A stretch of DNA of 10,694 nt from a virus (lineage: Duplodnaviria > Heunggongvirae > Uroviricota > Caudoviricetes): IMG/VR virus record IMGVR_UViG_2711768038_000002; one strand, written 5' to 3'. The notes under the pieces were generated by a model, which saw only the letters and a list, made by a program, of their open reading frames with translations, ran no database searches and was not told the DNA's origin. Each line of letters begins with the position of its first letter. Within the stretch, counting starts at the first letter, position 1. Position numbers and translations under genes: made by a program. Below are positions 1 to 10,268 of the stretch, piece after piece.

Positions 1-1158
1 ATGCTCACCGTTAAGCAGATTGAAGCAGCAAAGTCGAAAGAAAAACCATACCGCCTTCTCGATGGTAATGGCCTGTACCTTTATGTCCCTGTATCCGGGA
101 AAAAGGTATGGCAGCTTCGCTACAAGATTGACGGTAAGGAAAAAATACTGACCGTAGGAAAATATCCGCTTATGACTTTGCAGGAGGCAAGGGATAAAGC
201 ATGGACTGCGAGGAAAGACATCTCGGTTGGCATCGATCCGGTAAAGGCGAAAAAGGCTTCGTCTAACAACAATTCATTTAGTGCGATTTACAAGGAATGG
301 TACGAGCACAAGAAGCAAGTCTGGTCAGTAGGCTATGCAACTGAACTTGCCAAAATGTTTGATGACGACATTTTACCCATCATCGGAGGTCTTGAGATTC
401 AGGATATTGAGCCGATGCAACTGCTGGAAGTAATCCGCAGATTTGAAGATCGCGGTGCAATGGAGCGAGCCAACAAAGCCCGCAGAAGATGCGGCGAGGT
501 TTTTCGTTACGCTATTGTCACCGGAAGGGCTAAATATAACCCGGCACCTGACCTTGCAGACGCCATGAAGGGATACCGCAAGAAGAACTTCCCGTTTCTT
601 CCTGCAGACCAGATCCCTGCATTCAACAAAGCACTGGCAACATTTTCAGGAAGTATCGTATCGCTCATTGCGACCAAAGTTTTACGCTACACTGCCCTAA
701 GAACGAAAGAGCTTCGTTCCATGCTATGGAAGAACGTCGATTTTGAAAACAGGATTATCACCATCGACGCCAGTGTGATGAAGGGACGCAAAATTCATGT
801 GGTCCCGATGTCAGACCAGGTGGTTGAACTTCTCACTACGCTAAGCTCAATCACCAAACCAGTATCAGAGTTTGTTTTTGCCGGGCGCAACGATAAGAAG
901 AAGCCAATCTGCGAGAACGCGGTATTGCTTGTGATCAAACAAATCGGCTATGAGGGTCTGGAAAGCGGTCACGGATTCAGGCATGAATTCAGCACGATTA
1001 TGAACGAGCACGAATGGCCCGCTGATGCTATTGAAGTGCAACTGGCACATGCCAACGGCGGTTCTGTGCGTGGAATTTACAACCATGCTCAGTATCTCGA
1101 CAAACGCAGAGAAATGATGCAGTGGTGGGCAGACTGGCTTGATGGGAAGGTTGATTAA
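1..1158 (+). CDS. intS: Tyrosine recombinase / P4-family prophage integrase (IntS-like, argW-targeting type)
   Basis: Uninterrupted 385-aa ORF starting at position 1, stop TAA 1156-1158. C-terminal tyrosine-recombinase signatures are visible (HGFRHEF box with HxxR; GIYNH with the catalytic Tyr candidate). The N-terminus MLTVKQIEAAK...YRLLDGNGLYLYV matches the P4-like integrase arm-binding region. Length and sequence match my recollection of E. coli CPS-53/KplE1 IntS; not verified by search. Confidence 0.9.
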   Translation: MLTVKQIEAAKSKEKPYRLLDGNGLYLYVPVSGKKVWQLRYKIDGKEKILTVGKYPLMTLQEARDKAWTARKDISVGIDPVKAKKASSNNNSFSAIYKEWYEHKKQVWSVGYATELAKMFDDDILPIIGGLEIQDIEPMQLLEVIRRFEDRGAMERANKARRRCGEVFRYAIVTGRAKYNPAPDLADAMKGYRKKNFPFLPADQIPAFNKALATFSGSIVSLIATKVLRYTALRTKELRSMLWKNVDFENRIITIDASVMKGRKIHVVPMSDQVVELLTTLSSITKPVSEFVFAGRNDKKKPICENAVLLVIKQIGYEGLESGHGFRHEFSTIMNEHEWPADAIEVQLAHANGGSVRGIYNHAQYLDKRREMMQWWADWLDGKVD

Positions 1159-1349
1159 AGAACAATAACAGCGCGTTGCAGCAATTACAGGAAACATCTT
1201 GTTACATACTTGGTTTTATGTCACTAACAAACTAGAGAAATTATGCATGAATAGACATATCGATCGTTATTTTTGTTGGTGATATACTTAACTGAATTTT
1301 ATGCACAACCATGTTGCGAATTTACCACATCATTACAAGGCAAACGGAA

Positions 1350-1667
1350 ATGAATAAGGATAAATGCTTAAATATAATTATATTAATAATCATTATAACA
1401 ATAATTGTTATTTCTTTTTATCCTATGTCATCAAGCTCAAAAGGGCATGATACGCAAAGTATTTCAGGTGACAACTTTAAATTAAGATCTTCTTTCTCAA
1501 GAGAATATTCATCATGCATATCAAACCTCAAAATGATAGCGCTAGACTTTGCTGGTCATAACATAGATTTCAACAGCCATAGCCAGTTCATAGCTTCAAG
1601 TGGCGAGGAAAAAATATTAGTAAAATGCACAAAAGATAATAAGTTACTATACATGCAAAATAAATGA
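1350..1667 (+). CDS. Hypothetical small membrane-anchored protein (moron), 105 aa
   Basis: ATG at 1350 with a weak GGA-type RBS; an in-frame ATG at 1311 has no RBS. The N-terminus has a single hydrophobic segment (LNIIILIIIITIIVISFY) followed by a hydrophilic Ser-rich domain. The gene is very AT-rich and is followed immediately by a strong hairpin terminator. No recognisable family. Confidence 0.4.
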   Translation: MNKDKCLNIIILIIIITIIVISFYPMSSSSKGHDTQSISGDNFKLRSSFSREYSSCISNLKMIALDFAGHNIDFNSHSQFIASSGEEKILVKCTKDNKLLYMQNK

Positions 1668-1673
1668 GAATTT

Positions 1674-1700
1674 CCGCACGCTTATCGCGTGCGGTTTTTT
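1674..1700. terminator. Rho-independent terminator between convergent genes (canonical for + strand, weaker for - strand)
   Basis: Perfect 8-bp stem CCGCACGC / GCGTGCGG (1674-1681 and 1687-1694) with loop TTATC, followed on + by TTTTTTATTTTTT. It sits between the stop of the small + ORF (1667) and the stop of the - strand membrane-protein gene (1699-1701). Confidence 0.65.
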
Positions 1701-3066
1701 ATTTTTTAGGTAATATATAGTATATTACCTTATATGAAAAATAGACAAATGATACAGTTATTATATTTTTCAAGAAAATAAATAAAAAGAATTCAAGACT
1801 CTCCCTTGCCATAAAAAATGAAAAAGGCATTGTCATAAGTGCAGCTATTTGTAATACACCAACTCTCCTCATCAATATGATTTTATCAAGAAATCTAAAA
1901 ACAACGCCTGAGATAACATATGAGCACCAGAAAAAATACTTTCCGAAAATAACAAGCGATGACCCAAGCAAAGTTGATGCCATATTCAATCCATTGCTAA
2001 GACCAAGAGCACTCACGGTAAAGTAATATGAGCTATTCATTGTGACAATTGGTTTGTCAGACCATATGAATCTTGGGATAAACCCTGAAAATTGAGTAAA
2101 GAAATAATAAATACCACCAACATTGCGATCATTGCTAAAGTATTTAACAGCTATACTCTGATAATTGATAGGAGATACGCTATCAGCTAAATATCTGACT
2201 ATAATGCCAAAAAGAGAGCCAGACGCTGAAATATCAACATCTGAGTATCTCACTATAGCCATTACACCAATTAGAATTAAGCACACAGAGCCTATGCATA
2301 TTAATTTCAACATGCCAATTAAGCCTCTAGAGTGGCAAATAAGAGCAACAATAAACATTGCCGAAAACATTACATTTCTTGAGCCACCAATAAGTACGTA
2401 ATATGCCATCCCAAATAACAATGACATTATAATTGATTTAACGAATACATACTTATCGTCAGATGTAATTGCATACACTATAACAGCAGAAACAAAAGAT
2501 GACATTATCATTATAATGACACCACTACCAGCATTCCCGCCAAGCTTTAAAGCATAATCATCAGAATTAAAAGATATGCCGTTTATGGCATAAAAAGCCA
2601 TCATCCCAACAAAACTTAAAAACAACGTTGTTCTTACAAATAATTTTGGGCTACCAATAAAATATTTATCAGAAAAAGTTATTTTATTTCTTCCTGCCGC
2701 TGTATGAGAGAATACATAAAACAAAACTATACCAATAAACGACAACGTAGACACATCATTTATATATTGATACGGCATATATTCTGCAGAACTAACTTTT
2801 GCCCCAACTCTAAACGGAAGCGATATATACCCAAAAAAATGAGTAAAAACGAGGAATAACATCCCAACAGATTTGAATGACACGCCATGTTTTTTGAATG
2901 ACACGGCACTTAGATATATTAATATTATGGCATACAACGCAGGTAGCACATAAGTAAAAAATGATTCATAAATATTCATAATATTGTATGTAAAAATGAC
3001 TATTTTTACCCGATCTTTAAAGAAAGTACAGGATGATAGCGCGTTTCTACGCGCCATCATAGTCAC
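1699..3066 (-). CDS. Polytopic inner-membrane protein, putative O-antigen modification enzyme (Wzy-like polymerase candidate); lysogenic-conversion position
   Basis: 455-aa ORF with at least 10 long hydrophobic segments and a roughly 60-aa loop rich in Arg and aromatic residues between TM blocks. Very AT-rich compared with neighbours (by eye). The start ATG (3066-3064) overlaps the tailspike stop TGA (3065-3063) as ATGA; alternative in-frame starts lie near 2979. It occupies the position immediately downstream of the tailspike where P22-like phages carry oac or gtr conversion genes. The family call is inference only. Confidence 0.6.
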
Positions 3067-5246
3067 CTTACAACAAATTTGCCATTGCTAATGTCGTTAA
3101 CTAGTGTTGCCACTATGTTAGCAACATCCTTCGTAGATAGGGTGTTTACGTCTCCACCGCGTAACGCACCGGAATTGGTAAATGGATACTGCTGAGGTTG
3201 TGAGCTATTGGCAAACTGGTTGTTAGCCTCATAACGTTTTGTTGGTACAGGGTTGTACCCAATACTGCCTGTGGTTGTGTCAGGAGCCACGCAGTTCGTA
3301 ATGTTCACTATAGCGGCAGAACCACTACCATTTGTATATATTGGCCTGTTAACTGTCCCGAATGGTTGCACAGCTACCAGTCTGTTAACAATAACACTAT
3401 GTGTGGCTAGTGCCTGTAAATAAGATTCTGCGCTCCCGTTGCACCCCCTCAAGTTCACATTATCAACCTCTATGTGGCGGCAGTTAATGGTGACGATATA
3501 ATGACCATTTTCTGTGTTAGGGTAAGCGCCTACTATGCGAACATTTTTTAATGTTAAATCTGTGGTTGGCACCGCAGCAGGCCCACCGTTGAAAACAAAC
3601 CCTTTTGCACCATTTGCAAGTGCGTGTATCGTAATGCCGTCAAACTCGATGTCGGCAAGATTAGTCGTGGTATTGGCTGAGTTTGCCAAAAAATAAACAG
3701 CCTCAGCAGAGCAACCTGATATCAAGAAGTTAGAAAAACGCATCCTTGTGTTTTCTACCGGATAGAAGCGGCATAACAAACCCTGCGAGCAGTTACGAAT
3801 AACAACGTTATCATAGGATACGTCACTAGCTCCTTCAATTGCGACACCTGCATTCGAACTTTCTACATATAGTCCAGTAACTACTCCATTACGGAAATTC
3901 CCACGAAGCCCGTGGCTTTCACAGTTTTTGATTGTGGCGGCGTTTATGTTAACTCTTGTAATAGCTGTCCCTTCCCCGCTTCCGTTCACAAGGTCGTCTG
4001 ATTGAACACGCAAACCGTTACCGCCAGAGGTATTAATGCTCACATCGTGAATCATAAGATTAAGAGTACGGTTTGGCCGGTGTGATGAGAAGAACAAAGA
4101 TGAGGCCCAAGTGTTTCTGCAACGGATATGATGGACGTGCGCCTCTGTAGGGTCATTGACAATGATCGCCATGCCAGTGCGGTTGCTGCCATCTGGATCT
4201 TGAATTTTCCCACGACCACAATCATGTGAGTACAGATTATCGGCAAGAACCCATCTCCCATAATCCATCGTTACGTTGCTATTCCATGCCCCCTGCAATT
4301 CACACCCTGAAAGCTCAAGTGTACCTGCAGATTGCATGGCCAAACCAACCCCTGGGTCAAATGAAGCATTCTGCCGATAAAAATCAAACAAGAAATTACC
4401 GACAATGCGTATATCATATGGAGTATAGTCAAACTCTTGATTTGATTCGTTCCATGTCCGTGGGGATCTGAGCCATAATTGTCTGGAATCTACCGTCACT
4501 TTTGGCAATAACGGCTTTATGAGGATGTCTCCCTGAATATTAAATATACCTTCTACAGTTACGGGAGAGTAAGCGATCCCGATATTTCCAGATAGTGGAA
4601 GTAGTCTACTAAGTTGAGCGTCATTTTGTGCAATTTTCCAACCAGAATTAACCTCATTAAAAAATGATATTGGGTAAAGTTCAATATTATCATTAATTAC
4701 AGTTGAGTCATAACTGGTAATTGTCAATGGTGATGATAATGGTGTGCTCATCATCATAAGGGCGCCATCAAGCCTAACGAATCTTACACCTTCGGGAATT
4801 AAGTCTCCTATTTTTGCATCAATTCCAATTTTATTAGGATAAACCTCACCACCTAAAAATCCATTCATTCCTCGAAGCCAAGATAGATTTAACATGACTG
4901 ATAACTGATCTGGATCGTACTTCAGCACATTAGGGAAATAGAACTGCTGTGATCCATATGCATCGTACACAGCCATAGAATGCCCTTGTACAGTAACGAA
5001 CTTAGCAATCTGTCCGTTATATACAGGGTAGCCAGCAGCGTTAATAATTATTGGTTGCGAAACGGGAATGTGAGAGCCGTCTTCGTTCTCCACATAAACC
5101 TGAATTTGGTTTTCAGGATTTACCGGGTCCGTGTCAATTTTACCGATATAAATTTTGCCATTGGCTACGGCTTTAAAAGAACGAGCCATAGTGAAGAGTT
5201 GCGAAGGCATACTCACTACAACATTGGCATTTATTGAATCTGTCAT
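3063..5246 (-). CDS. P22-family tailspike protein (conserved N-terminal head-binding domain plus divergent beta-helix receptor-binding/depolymerase domain)
   Basis: 727-aa uninterrupted ORF with GGAG 8 nt upstream of ATG 5246-5244. The first ~110 aa ([59 protein letters not shown]...[17 protein letters not shown]...NVLKYDPDQ) match the P22 gp9 / Sf6 / HK620 tailspike head-binding domain as I recall it. The remainder shows repetitive N/G/V-rich beta-helix-like segments. Confidence 0.9.
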
Positions 5247-5304
5247 TTAATTTGCTCCAGATGCAAGGAATCGCCGCAGCATGGCTACGGTGAATTTTGG
5301 GCAT

Positions 5305-5327
5305 AAAAAAACCCAGCCGAAGCTGGG
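5305..5327 (-). terminator. Rho-independent terminator acting on - strand transcripts, upstream of the tailspike gene
   Basis: Stem CCCAGC (5312-5317) / GCTGGG (5322-5327), loop CGAA, flanked on + by a 7-A run (5305-5311), which is a U-tract on the - strand immediately after the hairpin. Confidence 0.55.
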
Positions 5328-5379
5328 TCGTTGCGTTGGTTATCTGTCAGTAGTTATGCACTGGCTGAAGGATTTGTAC

Positions 5380-5409
5380 AAAAAACCACCTGACGGTGGG
5401 TTAATTTTT
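5380..5409 (-). terminator. Second hairpin terminator candidate (mainly - strand; weak on +)
   Basis: Stem CCACC (5386-5390) / GGTGG (5395-5399), loop TGAC, with a 6-A run upstream on + (U-tract on -) and TTAATTTTT downstream on +. Confidence 0.45.
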
Positions 5410-5427
5410 GCATTTACCTGGGCCATA

Positions 5428-5456
5428 TTGACTACTTATAAAATGAGATCAATATT
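5428..5456 (+). promoter_or_regulatory. Candidate sigma70-like promoter for the small basic protein gene
   Basis: TTGACT at 5428-5433, a 17-nt spacer, then AATATT at 5451-5456, about 35 nt upstream of ATG 5493. Pattern match by eye only. Confidence 0.25.
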
Positions 5457-5492
5457 TAATCGCCCAATAACGGGTGTATGTTGAGGTATATC

Positions 5493-5672
5493 ATGGCGAA
5501 AAAACCAGGTGAAAACACAGGAAAAAACGGCGGAATATACCAAGAAGTTGGCCCACGCGGCGGTAAGAAAGACAATTTTGCCACCGTCAAGGACAACGAA
5601 AGGCTTCCACCAACAACAAAGCCAGGTCATGGCTGGGTATTGGATAAGCGAACTCCAGACAGCAAAAAGTAA
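5493..5672 (+). CDS. Hypothetical small basic Lys/Gly-rich protein, 59 aa
   Basis: ATG 5493 is preceded by GAGG (5483-5486) at 6-nt spacing; the upstream in-frame ATG at 5478 lacks an RBS. Stop TAA 5670-5672 is followed by a hairpin terminator. No family recognised. Confidence 0.45.
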   Translation: MAKKPGENTGKNGGIYQEVGPRGGKKDNFATVKDNERLPPTTKPGHGWVLDKRTPDSKK

Positions 5673-5678
5673 TAATCA

Positions 5679-5700
5679 AGCCGGTTCACTCCGGCTTTTT
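5679..5700. terminator. Hairpin terminator shared by the convergent small-protein (+) and zincin-like (-) genes
   Basis: Stem AGCCGG (5679-5684) / CCGGCT (5691-5696), loop TTCACT, followed on + by TTTTT. The stop codon of the - strand gene (5686-5688) lies in the loop. Confidence 0.5.
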
Positions 5701-6051
5701 GATATGTCGCTCGCAGAACTCAACAAGCCTGCTCATTAAGTAGCAGTAAGTCTCGTTGGCTCTTCCTGGTTCAACATCAACACCTACCCTTGAGCAGATA
5801 TCGAATGCCATGTGAGCGCACTCATGGGCAATAGTAGATAGTTTGCCATTGAACACGCCTATCACATGCAAAACACCATTCTCGCTACTCATTGTATGAG
5901 ACGCTCCGTTGGCGTCCGAGTCATGCACGTCAACGCCAAGTTTTTGATGCAGGCGTTGCCATTCTGGAAAGTCTCTACAAAACACAATTGTACCGCTCTC
6001 AAAGAGCGGAACGAGCATCTTTGGTACGTTTCCAATGTTAACTTTTTTCAT
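5686..6051 (-). CDS. Putative zincin-like metallopeptidase (HEXXH motif; ImmA/IrrE- or SprT-like), 121 aa
   Basis: ATG 6051-6049 with AGGA 4 nt upstream. The protein contains AHECAHMAFD (H-E-x-x-H zinc-binding motif) preceded by a LGVDV...NGKLSTIAHE arrangement resembling ImmA/IrrE-family peptidases. The family call is from motif recall, not search. Confidence 0.55.
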   Translation of the reverse strand: MKKVNIGNVPKMLVPLFESGTIVFCRDFPEWQRLHQKLGVDVHDSDANGASHTMSSENGVLHVIGVFNGKLSTIAHECAHMAFDICSRVGVDVEPGRANETYCYLMSRLVEFCERHIKKPE

Positions 6052-6085
6052 GGTATCCTGCGCAAAACTAAGGAGAGTTAATTAT

Positions 6086-6571
6086 ATGAAAAAATCACTG
6101 TTAATTATCCCGCTTCTGCTGGCTGGGTGCGCAAAAGTAAGCGACTATCAGGCAAGTTGCGAGCAACGCTATCCAAAGCTTAGCGATATGGCTAATTGCC
6201 TTGATGCCAGCTTGAAGAACGACTCTCGCATGGCATCAGCACCAACACCTAAGCTTTATGTCCTTGCTGCGAAGATGCTCGGGCAAGGTGTCGATGAAGG
6301 CAAGATAAGTGACACACAGGCAAGACTTGAACTTCAGAATCTTTATGTTCAATTACAAAGCCAAGAACAAGCACAACAAATAGCACAAAGCCAAGCATTC
6401 CAGCAGGCTTTATTGAATTATCAGGCTGTAAACACAATGCAAGCGATCGAGCAAAAAGCGCGCCAGCCTGTTATAACTCAACCTTACCCAACACGCGTTG
6501 ACACATATACAAACTGCAATTCAGGATTTGGAAACACGGTAACATGCAACAGTAGCAGTAATATAAGATAG
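6086..6571 (+). CDS. Lipoprotein (signal peptide with lipobox LLAG-C), Gln-rich central region; candidate superinfection-exclusion or moron product
   Basis: ATG 6086 is preceded by AGGAGAG (6071-6077). The N-terminus MKKSLLIIPLLLAGCAK is a classical lipoprotein signal peptide with lipobox. The mature part has a Gln/Ala-rich, probably helical segment and several Cys. The ORF-track start at 6035 lacks an RBS and would bury the signal peptide. Confidence 0.7.
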   Translation: MKKSLLIIPLLLAGCAKVSDYQASCEQRYPKLSDMANCLDASLKNDSRMASAPTPKLYVLAAKMLGQGVDEGKISDTQARLELQNLYVQLQSQEQAQQIAQSQAFQQALLNYQAVNTMQAIEQKARQPVITQPYPTRVDTYTNCNSGFGNTVTCNSSSNIR

Positions 6572-6584
6572 TTATATCTTATTT

Positions 6585-8432
6585 TTATTGCTGTTCTGCT
6601 GTAATTTGGCTTGAAAGTATAGGGCGTATCGCATTTGCAGCATTATTTAGCGCTCTTTCATAGGCTGGTGTTCCTGCTTTGGTGTTTGCCAAACGTAAGA
6701 GAGCATTCCTTGCTGCTTTTGACTCATACAAGCGCATCATTGCACCGAAACCAGCCTCAAGCCCCATTGATACGCCAAGAGTCGCAGTTGCGCCAATCGT
6801 CCTTATCCTGTTGGCTTGCGATTGCCCCGTCTGAGTTACTACATTTGCGGTGTCTGACCTTGCTGTTTGCTGTAGAACTTCATGAAGAGAATCAAGCTCT
6901 TTCATGTGCTTTCCAGAAAAAATAGTGTTGTAAATTTCACCGCCTGACTGAGATTTCAGCTTATTAACTTCAGTGATGAACTTGGCTGGAGAGTCACCGG
7001 CCTTTTCCGCTATTTTGCTGACGTAAGCTGCACGCATAGCATCTTTCCCTTTATCATCCAATGCGCTCCAGATTCGTTTCACGTCAGATGGTTTTCTGCT
7101 TAATACAACGGTATTTATAAGTTCAGGACTGGCTTCACTGCTTGCCTTGTTGAGCTTGTTAGCAATGTTTTTATTAAGCACCTTATTATAAACGTTTGCA
7201 TAATCGGAATTTGCTTTAAGGTATTTTGCTGCGTCTGATGCACCGAGGTTTTTAGCAACTGCGTTACGAAGGTCTTTTGACATTGCATTCTCTACCATAT
7301 TGGTAGCTGCTTTTGCCTGGTTGGGGAAGACCATAGCATCTCCCTGAACATTAGATCTAAATGCTGTTCTGTGCTGACGCAAGAGATCAAACGTAACATC
7401 CAAATCAGTTGCAGGGTTAGCTAATTCTTCACGTAGGTTACGCAAGGATGTAAGCAGGCTTTGATTGGCTGAAGTCCCAAGCCGTTCCTGTCTTGCGATC
7501 GCTGCATTCAGAGCATTCATGGTATTTGTGGTATCAACTGCGGCATTACCCATTTTATTGGTGACGTCATTGATAACAGCGCCAGCAGCATCCTTCCGCC
7601 CCCTTAACGTGGTGGTCAGAGATTTCACCACATCATCAGGGTTGTACTCACCAAAACGGTCAAAATAATTGCTTACCAGCTTACTACGCGTTGCATATTG
7701 CTCCGCTCGCTTTAAGCCTGTCCCGAGCAAAGCCCCCTCGGCATCCTGAGTAAGGCCGCGAGTGAAAGCATTTTTCGGCGGGATAACATCAGATGTCATT
7801 GGTGTCACGCCCATCGATTCTGATGTGGCAATTTTCTTCGCCACTTCTGGCGCAATATCACCTTTTATAGCCGTTATTCCACGCCCTATTCCCTTTGCTG
7901 CTGCGGAAAGAACCCCCTGAGCGGCAAGGTTAACTCCGGCATTTTTGGCTGCATTTTGTGCGAAATCGCCTTTCTGATTTGCGGCCTCTGCCAGTGATCC
8001 AATAGCCATGCTTCCTGCCGTTCCAACGCCTGGAACTAAATACCCGCCAATTGTTTCACCGGCTTGCGCGTAAGGGTCGGTCGGTCGATCTACTGGACGA
8101 TAGACATCGTCCAAAACCTTGGGGCCACCAAGCCCCTGGCTGATTGCATTAATCAGACTTGCGCCACCCTGCAATACGTCAAATGGTATGTTTACCAGAC
8201 CACGACCAGCCTGCTCTGCAATTTGCCCTGCACTTTGCCCGCCTGTGAGCCAATCGCCAGCTTGTTGCATCAATGATGGTTCTTCACGTGCTGGTTCATT
8301 ATTGGCCTGATTAACTGTTTGTTGCTGAACAGCCTGACCAGCAAAATACTCATCAATGGCGGTGCCAATATCTTCCGTGCTCGTACCATCAGGGAAGGTA
8401 AATGTCTTACCGTTTGCAGTTACTTTCATCAT
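6585..8432 (-). CDS. P22 gp16-like ejection (DNA-transfer) protein
   Basis: 615-aa ORF. The N-terminus [33 protein letters not shown] matches my recollection of P22 gp16, and the size is close to P22 gp16 (about 609 aa). Start ATG 8432-8430 overlaps the stop TGA 8431-8429 of the upstream gp20-like gene as ATGA. Confidence 0.85.
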
Positions 8433-9896
8433 TCCACCGTAAATTGAATTCCTGATTTTGAGGTATATGATCCGGATTGACTCTGCTGCTGTTGGGTATT
8501 TGCCGGTTGTTGGCTATTGCTCTGTTGTTGACTATTTGCAGCACTTGAAACCACCAAAGCATCATAAACGCGACCAGACTGACCACGTAATGAGTTATAT
8601 TGGCCCTGCATTTTTCGCATTTTTGTTTCAGTAGCAGCCTTGGAATCACCGGGCTGAGGCAGGTACATTTTGGAATACTCCTGCATCTCTGGCAGAGTAA
8701 TTGCTGCACCTGTTTCTGGGCGCAAAATTGCATACAAGGCGTCTCTCGCATTTACCATATATTGCTGCTCCGCTGGTGATAGGCTTAAATTTGCAATAGT
8801 CCCATCACCAAGAGAGCGATTTATTAATGCAACTCGCTTAGGGTCAATGCTTTTACTAAGCTGATTCATTGAGTCCATTGAATCTTTTAATCGCAAAGCA
8901 AATCCTGCCGCCTTCTTGGAACCCTCATTAGCCTTATCTATGATGCTTTGCGCTTGTGGCAAGCTAATTGGTTTAATGCCATCACCAGATATAGGTTGGT
9001 TTAGTTTTCCGGCTTCCTCGCTGCCATCGGTGTAATACTTAGTTACCGAGCCATCAGGATTGGTTTCAACCTTAAGTAATTTCTTAGCATTGGGATTAAT
9101 TCCCGCCGCTGCCGCAAATGCCGCTGCACCATTTGGATCCGCCTTTAACATTTGCGCGTACTGATTGTAATTCTGCATTGCAGCTGTTGGTGCATATGCT
9201 GACGTTAACGCATTTGCTCGGCTAATATCCTGCCCTCTCGCCTGAAGCGCCTCGCCAGCCTGATTGCTGCGAATCGTCTCTGCCAACTCGCCACGCTCAA
9301 TATCCCGACCAGCCATCTTGTCCTGAACATTGAAGTAATCAATCGGACCAAGAGCAGCCATTCCAAGGTGATCAACAAACTCACCAAATCCTGAAGGGTT
9401 CTGCTGATACATCTGAGCAACGCTGTTAGGGTCAACACCGACGCGAGTCAGTTCCTTGGCGTTGTTTTGCAGCCATGATTGCATTGCTTCTGGAGACGAT
9501 GACGCAAGGCGTGCGCCAGCCGCTAAGGTGCCGATAGAATTACGCTGGTCTTCATCAATGAATCCCATGCCTTTACGAACGGATTCAATCTGGTCTGGAT
9601 ATTGAGTAGCCAACTGACGCAAAGCACCGCGATCACCAGACGCATAAGCATTAGCGTACGCCTGCTGAAATTCTTTCTGCCGCTGAGCCTGCTTTTCCTG
9701 CTGAACCCCCCCCCGCAATACCTGAAAGGCCTTGCAAAGCAGTCAGCCCAACATTGTTAGCGCCTGAACGCTCAATATCATTGTTCTGCCTGATAAGCTG
9801 AAGCGTATTGCCGATGTCATTTACGCTCGGAGCGTTTGAGTTGACGCCGCCGATACCAGCCAACAATCCGCCGTTTGTTCCTTGCCAAGTAGCCAT
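8429..9896 (-). pseudogene. P22 gp20-like ejection protein gene interrupted by a frameshift in a homopolymeric tract
   Basis: Two overlapping - strand ORFs in different frames: 9896-9651 ([10 protein letters not shown]..., 81 aa, ATG with a GGGG RBS) and 9718-8429 (429 aa, opening on a TTG codon). They meet at a run of 9 C on + (9706-9714), which is 9 G on the coding strand. Removing one G gives a continuous reading ...[13 protein letters not shown]... of about 489 aa, comparable to P22 gp20. Confidence 0.75.
9706..9714. repeat. Homopolymeric C9 tract (G9 on the - coding strand) at the gp20-like frameshift site
   Basis: Direct count in the sequence: ctgaa ccccccccc gcaata. Confidence 0.9.
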
Positions 9897-9905
9897 GATT
9901 ACCCC

Positions 9906-10184
9906 TTAAAACAACGAGCCAAGCAATCCGATACCAGCACCAATGCCAGCGCCCCAAGGCGTTGATGTTCCCAAAAGGCTGGCAAGACCTGCACCGGCAA
10001 TCGCACCAGACGTGCCGCCGCTAATTGCAGTCTGAAGACTTGATGGTTTATTGGCATTTGCAGCGGCAAGAGCTGCGCTTTGCTGTGCAATGCTGCTCAT
10101 GTTGTTGGCGTACGTCTGCCCGGCGTTTGCCTGACCTTGCAGAGCACCAAGCCCAACGTTTGCCAGATTGTTGTAATTGCTCAT
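9906..10184 (-). CDS. Small Ala/Gly/Asn-rich protein with C-terminal Gly-rich hydrophobic segment; positional equivalent of ejection protein gp7 (possibly 5'-truncated)
   Basis: ATG 10184-10182 (the ORF track extends to a GTG at 10208). Stop TAA 9908-9906 lies 9 nt before the gp20-like start and overlaps its RBS. At 92 aa it is much shorter than P22 gp7 as I recall it (about 229 aa). An in-frame stop lies at 10226-10224, and upstream of it the late operon is absent. Confidence 0.5.
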   Translation of the reverse strand: MSNYNNLANVGLGALQGQANAGQTYANNMSSIAQQSAALAAANANKPSSLQTAISGGTSGAIAGAGLASLLGTSTPWGAGIGAGIGLLGSLF

Positions 10185-10268
10185 CTGGTTTGATAACAAT
10201 CCTCGCACTCGCGGGGATTTCTTTTATCTGAACTCGCTACGGCGGGTTTTGTTTTATGGAGATGATAA

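Follow-up and report, generated by a model that had tools for sequence, protein, structure and literature searches.

Salmonella phage epsilon15 and Pseudomonas phage D3 are textbook examples of seroconversion by a phage-encoded polymerase. The D3 conversion module consists of Iap and Wzy-beta (PMC12004945), and in Acinetobacter the K127 capsule is reportedly completed by a phage-encoded Wzy (PMC9241936). Conversion by a phage-borne Wzy is established in epsilon15 and D3 and, more recently, in Acinetobacter. In Escherichia coli it has so far appeared only as a possible explanation: a 2019 review considered a second wzy plus an inhibitor, located outside the O-cluster, as one way to account for the difference between O118 and O151 (PMC7685785). 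Here we describe a candidate of this kind in the virus record IMGVR_UViG_2711768038_000002, a stretch of 10,694 nucleotides hereafter called the window, which is the integrase-proximal end of a P22-like prophage. Between its integrase and tailspike genes, the window contains only a polymerase gene of the WzyE family, called wzy below (core coding sequence 1699..2979, minus strand, 426 amino acids, stop codon TAA at 1701-1699), and a small hypothetical open reading frame (ORF). No prior description of this two-gene module was found in the literature. The polymerase itself already has a public name, 'WzyE family oligosaccharide polymerase', with 'common antigen polymerase' in older records.

The sole Pfam match of the prophage protein is WzyE (PF06899), with 64 bits for a cut-off of 25; residues 39-451 of the longest possible form align with profile positions 10-429 of 447. 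With the NCBIfam equivalog for the polymerase of the enterobacterial common antigen (ECA), NF002820, the score was 69.8 bits, below the cut-off of 510. The identity with Salmonella WzyE is about 19%, and the prophage gene lies outside the wec/rff operon, where the authentic wzyE is found between wecF and wecG. Judged from these profile matches, the prophage protein belongs to the WzyE family but is distinct from the ECA polymerase. Searched exhaustively with HMMER, a set of 1.84 billion representative proteins yielded 86 relatives; the protein cluster of the prophage wzy counts 260 member sequences. When 66 full-length sequences were aligned, Salmonella WzyE included, all family-invariant positions proved to be retained in the prophage polymerase (Y142, G199, R201, R244/Y245, P270, P302/R303, W306, K309/P310, T321, T336 and R392/E393), among them the three arginines R201, R244 and R392. 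The wzy alleles differ by 13-22 synonymous and 9 non-synonymous codon changes, a pattern that indicates purifying selection. All 22-31 nucleotide differences between alleles fall inside the core coding sequence 1699-2979. The 121 nucleotides upstream (2980-3100) are identical in the compared alleles and the 499 nucleotides downstream (1200-1698) are identical to those of many carriers, so divergence or recombination appears confined to the polymerase gene.

A Kyte-Doolittle scan gave about 11-12 hydrophobic segments and a single large hydrophilic loop of about 90 residues (approximately 253-341 of the 426-residue form), rich in arginine and aromatic residues and containing the sequence RYSD. 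A structure model of the protein resembles solved members of the Wzy/SEDS/WaaL class, its closest fold matches being the lipid-linked glycan polymerases FtsW and RodA. Searching the PDB by sequence, either with the single sequence or with a seven-sequence profile, returned no solved relative. Neither Wzy_C/O-antigen ligase (PF04932) nor GtrC nor acyltransferase-3 gave a Pfam match at E <= 1, and no transporter family was matched significantly. We are highly confident that the product is a functional polymerase of the Wzy type within the WzyE family, its polymerising activity being predicted. An earlier note on this DNA had described an AT-rich gene for a polytopic membrane protein at 1699-3066, with an arginine- and aromatic-rich loop among many membrane helices, located beside a P22-type tailspike gene, lacking a gtrA/gtrB partner and different from acyltransferase-3 enzymes. 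Composition, topology, location and family assignment agree with this description, and the transporter match which that note had regarded as fatal to its proposal was not found. It had overlooked the WzyE family, the existing public name and a second Wzy-dependent polysaccharide as the likely substrate.

The same note had proposed that wzy is translationally coupled to the tailspike gene through an ATGA overlap. The overlap actually reads GTGA, with GTG at 3066-3064 and the tailspike stop TGA at 3065-3063. From this GTG, the frame is open without interruption over 1699..3066 on the minus strand (455 codons). Two further ATG codons, at 3060 and 3057, form an ATG-ATG pair at 3060-3055, downstream of the tailspike stop. 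Public start calls made by PGAP differ, with 426 residues (ATG 2979) in strain J31 and 453 residues (ATG 3060) in STEC308. The open upstream extension (2980..3066, minus strand, from GTG 3066 or ATG 3060) adds 29 N-terminal codons that a 61%-identical relative does not conserve and that the relatives in Enterobacter phage CobraSix and in Vibrio lack. These last two align from Met-30 of the long form, and in CobraSix an in-frame stop lies 21 nucleotides upstream of the polymerase start. Sequence comparison therefore points to ATG 2979 as the likely start. The extension coincides with a structured RNA element (2993..3069, minus strand), detected by terminator scan and by folding. An inner terminator-like hairpin of 12 pairs spans 3060-3033, and an outer stem pairs 3069-3059 with 3003-2993, sequestering the AAGGUGA/AUG 3060 region. 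The minimum free energy of the leader RNA is -30.5 kcal/mol (z = -5.25), and none of 200 shuffled sequences folded as well. GC hairpins followed by a T-run are also found after the tailspike stop in CobraSix and in the contig with the 61%-identical relative (L002). Region 2980-3066 is probably a structured leader without coding function rather than the N-terminal part of the gene. Because the extension is unconserved, RNA structure coincides with it and the start evidence favours ATG 2979, translational coupling is unsupported.

The module was found in 27 of 5,426 complete E. coli genomes (0.5%). Between galF and gnd, 24 of these carriers possess the same six-gene cluster, wzy-wzx-orf3 (496 amino acids)-GT4-pssD-pssE, which is present in 67 of the 5,426 genomes overall (1.2%); AMA1167 and SCEC020026 are examples of non-lysogenic strains that possess it. 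In seven of the 24 concordant carriers the whole his-linked region was inspected; the other 17 were found by search. The co-occurrence of module and cluster corresponds to a Fisher p value of 4e-45, uncorrected for clonality. We take the main carrier lineage to be sequence type 410 (ST410) O8:H9, a pandemic carbapenem-resistant high-risk clone. The polymerase of the host cluster also belongs to the WzyE family (73.8 bits) and is 31% identical to the prophage polymerase over 317 residues. It is intact, with 413 amino acids, in all six inspected carriers of the ST410-like allele (N1024, N1083, XH2172, 114, STEC308 and Eco_23-3571).

Of the five carriers inspected over a sufficient length, four (J31, XH2172, 114 and N1083) possess an O8/O9-type mannan cluster with wzm/wzt. 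Since the ABC-transporter (wzm/wzt) pathway needs no Wzy, the mannan cannot be the substrate of the prophage enzyme. In strain 90-1, the galF-gnd Wzx/Wzy cluster is present and the mannan cluster is absent. The substrate is therefore likely to be a second, Wzy-dependent polysaccharide rather than the O8/O9 mannan. In XH2172, 114 and N1083, manC of the mannan cluster carries an internal stop (L010:31192-32607, L013:23374-24789 and L028:20682-22000, respectively). Such 'O8' strains may be devoid of mannan O-antigen, the galF-gnd polymer then being the main O-chain. In the J31/A10 lineage, the 496-residue orf3 is split into two ORFs (L008:35433-36804, L023:1-588), and the whole galF-gnd cluster may be decaying there. 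In gene content and in its position in O8 strains, the galF-gnd cluster presumably resembles the K40 group-4 K-antigen cluster, which is a tentative lead to its identity. The K40 cluster is reportedly the subject of papers by Amor and Whitfield from 1997 and 1999. The 1999 paper is cited in PMC13463779. The UniRef representative of orf3, O30628, has a 1990s-style accession.

Three carriers do not have the six-gene cluster. In N273 the cluster is of the O131 type, while the adjacent upstream colanic-acid genes wzxC, wcaK, wcaL and wcaM bear protein identifiers shared with other carriers, as though the O-cluster had been exchanged once the prophage was established. The cluster of E94, and presumably that of E92, is of the O180 type, seen in no other carrier lineage. 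In E94, a deletion of 10 nucleotides between the direct repeats TTATGAAT removes ATG 2979 from the prophage wzy and shifts the frame (L019:4001-5392), and E92 shows the same shortened wzy match. Such a loss would fit decay of the gene in a host without its cognate substrate. With an apparent O-cluster switch in N273 and apparent wzy decay in E94, and presumably E92, the three non-concordant carriers fit the same picture as the others.

In Vibrio cholerae, a wza-wzb-wzc capsule cluster has the same gene order as the galF-gnd cluster of E. coli (L005:10001-17086 as compared to XH2172 L010:20108-25986). All six proteins are 32-51% identical between the two clusters. The counterpart of orf3, unannotated, of about 497 residues and without a Pfam domain, is 46% identical. 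The V. cholerae capsule polymerase is 38% identical to the prophage polymerase, closer than the host enzyme (31%). Together, the collinear cluster and this closer polymerase tie the WzyE-family branch to this type of repeat unit.

The P22-type tailspike gene (3063..5246, minus strand; Head_binding PF09008, E = 4e-65) lies directly upstream of wzy. This neighbourhood is kept in other phages. In metagenomic contigs, a 61%-identical wzy directly follows a tailspike gene whose product has a 70%-identical receptor-binding part. A 56%-identical wzy also follows a tailspike, here unrelated to that of the window, in CobraSix and in five IMG/VR prophages related to it. In three phage lineages, the polymerase gene thus accompanies genes for host recognition. 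Within the CobraSix group, where gp26 is the WzyE-family polymerase (gp26-gp28 at L007:6923-8493; relatives L030-L034), tailspikes vary (68-99% identity) while wzy and the small peptide genes stay conserved. A protein search of the phage collection returned only CobraSix and weak WzyE-like matches. The argW phage Kapi1, which modifies O-antigen, was considered as a possible match, but no DNA-level match to the module was found in the phage collection, which is expected to include Kapi1. A scan of GTDB genomes confirmed no locus.

The receptor-binding part of the window's tailspike (3066-4886) matches tailspikes of three virulent phages, the N4-like phage G7C, the Shigella phage MK-13 and the Enterobacter phage fGh-Ecl02, with 68% identity across 99% of its length. 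The matched G7C protein is probably gp66, as judged by coordinates, and the searchable papers state no receptor specificity for G7C gp66. The association described above suggests the galF-gnd polymer as a candidate target for G7C-type tailspikes.

In complete E. coli genomes, the same arrangement of integrase, module and tailspike is found at the tRNA-Arg gene argW. J31 shows the argW-intS context, and its prophage is truncated by IS1, with wzy still kept. In STEC306-308, the module lies elsewhere, adjoining bioA-ybhB (STEC308 L020:3461-7545), whereas at argW STEC308 has a decayed P22-like remnant whose tailspike gene directly adjoins a truncated intS, no wzy being annotated between them (L036:15040-18376). 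This shows that the module moves between prophage backbones.

The second gene of the module (1350..1667, plus strand) is convergent with wzy and also low in G+C. It encodes 105 residues from ATG 1350, or 118 from ATG 1311, with a predicted single N-terminal membrane span followed by a tail of about 70 residues. No Pfam, NCBIfam or PHROG family was assigned to it. The exact protein occurs on 320 contigs, annotated as 'hypothetical' only. The region containing it (1200-1698) has precisely the distribution of wzy across the 5,426 genomes, with the same 27 carriers and the bio-ybhB copy included, and is better conserved than wzy (99.2-100% as compared to 97.6-98.3% identity). In the CobraSix group, its place is taken by convergent genes for two small hydrophobic peptides, gp27 and gp28 (51 and 29 amino acids). 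The 105-residue membrane protein, whose place beside a phage wzy is reminiscent of D3 Iap (PMC12004945), is a candidate partner or inhibitor, the latter role being speculative.

These data lead us to propose that the wzy module would be cargo (a 'moron') of the P22-like prophage. In a lysogen, the prophage polymerase would take undecaprenyl-pyrophosphate-linked repeat units made by the host galF-gnd Wzx/Wzy cluster and would polymerise them at the periplasmic face through a linkage unlike that formed by the WzyE-family polymerase of the host. The resulting polysaccharide would escape recognition by the prophage's own tailspike and by the tailspikes of related phages, and the 105-residue protein may tip the balance between the phage and host enzymes. 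By analogy, lysogenic conversion of the epsilon15/D3 type is the most likely function. We hold it to be reasonably probable that the enzyme uses the galF-gnd unit, links it differently and so produces a polymer by which phages with this tailspike are excluded. As for the conversion enzyme of Wzy type anticipated by the earlier note, the Wzy family and fold, the invariant residues and the host-cluster enrichment speak for the enzyme, and O-antigen conversion itself is inferred. A wider version, tentative and on balance doubtful, would make wzy and the small ORF a self-contained cassette that alters another polysaccharide of the cell surface dependent on Wzy, probably a group-4 K antigen like K40 or an O-antigen capsule, in O8-typed E. 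coli, presumably including ST410, with the small protein as a modulator, different from Iap, that switches synthesis to the phage enzyme.

Several observations weigh against the proposed conversion. Most of the 24 concordant genomes look like one lineage, leaving about 5-6 independent ones, and the substrate and the changed linkage are both points that we infer. The structure model, built on a shallow alignment (word-indexed homologue searches gave 5-6 relatives), is of moderate quality, with a predicted local distance difference test score (pLDDT) of 64 and a predicted template-modelling score (pTM) of 0.68, and a Foldseek comparison with the PDB returned no significant match. The small ORF was also considered as a Wzz mimic, as is D3 Iap, and this idea was rejected: its similarity to WzzB is not significant, 16 of 300 shuffled sequences scoring as well. 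No homologue of the small ORF was found beside the 56-61%-identical phage wzy genes, and nothing homologous to a known inhibitor of host polymerases was detected. Finally, the terminator-like hairpin precedes wzy and only weak matches to a sigma-70 promoter, none of them convincing, were detected upstream of ATG 2979, so that expression of wzy in the lysogen is no more than presumed. With a Shine-Dalgarno sequence also unclear before ATG 2979, these last features would suit silent or decaying cargo, an intact gene that hitch-hikes with the tailspike while being unexpressed or without substrate. Degradation of the prophage in several hosts, as by IS1 in J31, and loss of the start in E94 and E92 point the same way. 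However, the substitution pattern of purifying selection, the retention of all invariant residues, the tailspike-wzy synteny kept at 56-61% protein identity in other phages and the persistence of wzy even in prophage remnants make silent cargo quite unlikely.

The prophage enzyme could also be a back-up or replacement polymerase, its linkage being identical to that of the host Wzy, or the sole one where the host gene is broken. It would then restore long chains without converting the serotype, as does the phage-encoded Wzy of the K127 capsule in Acinetobacter. This is improbable. The host wzy is intact in all the inspected carriers of the ST410-like allele, the frameshifted host allele of J31 is found as well in A10, which does not carry the module, and identical linkages are not expected from enzymes sharing 25-31% identity. 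A systematic inactivation of the host wzy in lysogens was rejected as a general rule on the same observations, frameshifts occurring also in a non-carrier and most carriers being intact. The family name, together with the older 'common antigen polymerase' annotation, would rather direct the enzyme to ECA, lipid III being polymerised into an altered ECA that the tailspike targets; ECA units, like many O units, begin with WecA-derived GlcNAc (PMC10030265). We consider this very unlikely in view of the score far under the equivalog cut-off and the low identity with Salmonella WzyE. Moreover, other WzyE-family polymerases clearly serve clusters unrelated to ECA, and the module, restricted to 0.5% of the genomes, tracks one O/K cluster, whereas all E. 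coli have ECA. Since the general architecture is common to Wzy, WaaL and SEDS proteins, a fold search alone cannot separate their activities, and a WaaL-like ligase or a GtrC-like modifying transferase might be imagined. Such an activity is extremely improbable: the profile match is specifically to WzyE, Wzy_C, GtrC and acyltransferase-3 having given none, and homologues fill the wzy slot beside wzx in two clusters that contain no other polymerase candidate. Conversion through a changed linkage is the function that we favour.

The other features of the window are those of a P22-like prophage. An IntS-type tyrosine integrase gene (1..1158, plus strand; Pfam Phage_integrase and Arm-DNA-bind_3) marks the argW-proximal end. 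Genes for the P22-type ejection proteins Inj_translocase (8429-9718) and gp7 (9906-10208) were identified by Pfam at the other side of the tailspike gene. The composition profile delimits the cargo module, small ORF and wzy, as a low-GC island (1200..3050, GC 0.28-0.36); the GC content of wzy is about 31-36% (45-50% in its flanks), and that of the integrase and tailspike genes is 0.43-0.50. Between the small ORF and wzy, the terminator scan detected a GC-rich hairpin (1674..1694) of 8 pairs, 7 of them GC, followed by TTTTTTATTT, the T-run being on the plus strand. In the gap between integrase and tailspike, gtrA/gtrB, GtrC and acyltransferase-3 gave no Pfam match at E <= 1. At the corresponding prophage site of K-12, gtr genes are found. 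In O104:H4 outbreak strains, the homologous argW P22-like prophage lists an acyltransferase-family gene under the matched region (window 1-10197). Judging from this acyltransferase gene, the site between integrase and tailspike would be an exchangeable position for conversion cassettes.

The module is a concrete candidate cassette linked to a defined host cluster, in genomes that appear to belong to the ST410 O8:H9 high-risk clone. If the linkage is changed, strains typed identically in silico would differ antigenically and in their sensitivity to tailspike phages, among them the relatives of G7C and MK-13 with the same receptor-binding domain, and WzyE would have to be viewed as a general polymerase family and not as 'the ECA polymerase'. 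If the cassette version also holds, E. coli would have its first documented case of seroconversion by a polymerase, and with it a source of hidden antigenic variation missed by in-silico O-typing. The CobraSix relative of the prophage wzy comes from a cultured phage and is currently annotated as hypothetical.

Compared with known systems, the prophage polymerase resembles WzyE, the ECA polymerase of Enterobacterales (PF06899; PMC10030265), in its full-length family match, its invariant Arg, Pro, Trp and Tyr residues, its size and its polytopic inner-membrane character. It differs by its identity of about one fifth, by its place beside a tailspike gene and not in the wec operon, and by tracking one O/K cluster. 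The galF-gnd polymerase of the host is of the same family, is found in the same cells and is the presumed competitor for the same substrate; it belongs to a different family lineage, the prophage gene lying in a low-GC phage island. Closer to the prophage polymerase, CobraSix gp26 (vB_EclS_CobraSix) is 56% identical over 94% of the length, follows a tailspike and a terminator hairpin and has convergent genes for small membrane peptides, but CobraSix is an Enterobacter siphovirus with an unrelated tailspike, and gp27 and gp28 are unrelated to the 105-residue ORF.

As in epsilon15 and D3 (Wzy-beta and Iap; PMC12004945, PMC7685785), a temperate phage brings a wzy gene into a host that has its own Wzy-dependent polymer, with one or more genes for small membrane proteins alongside. 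In contrast with D3, no Iap homologue was found in the module and a linkage change is here only presumed; no sequence relationship between the epsilon15 and D3 enzymes and the prophage polymerase is expected. In Acinetobacter baumannii K127 (PMC9241936, PMC13228068), a prophage Wzy likewise uses units made by the chromosomal locus. There, the phage Wzy reportedly polymerises the K units, whereas in the E. coli carriers of the module the host wzy is mostly intact. Genus and Wzy family also differ between the two systems, and the prophage polymerase would share with the Acinetobacter enzyme the polymerisation of host-made units by a phage-encoded Wzy.

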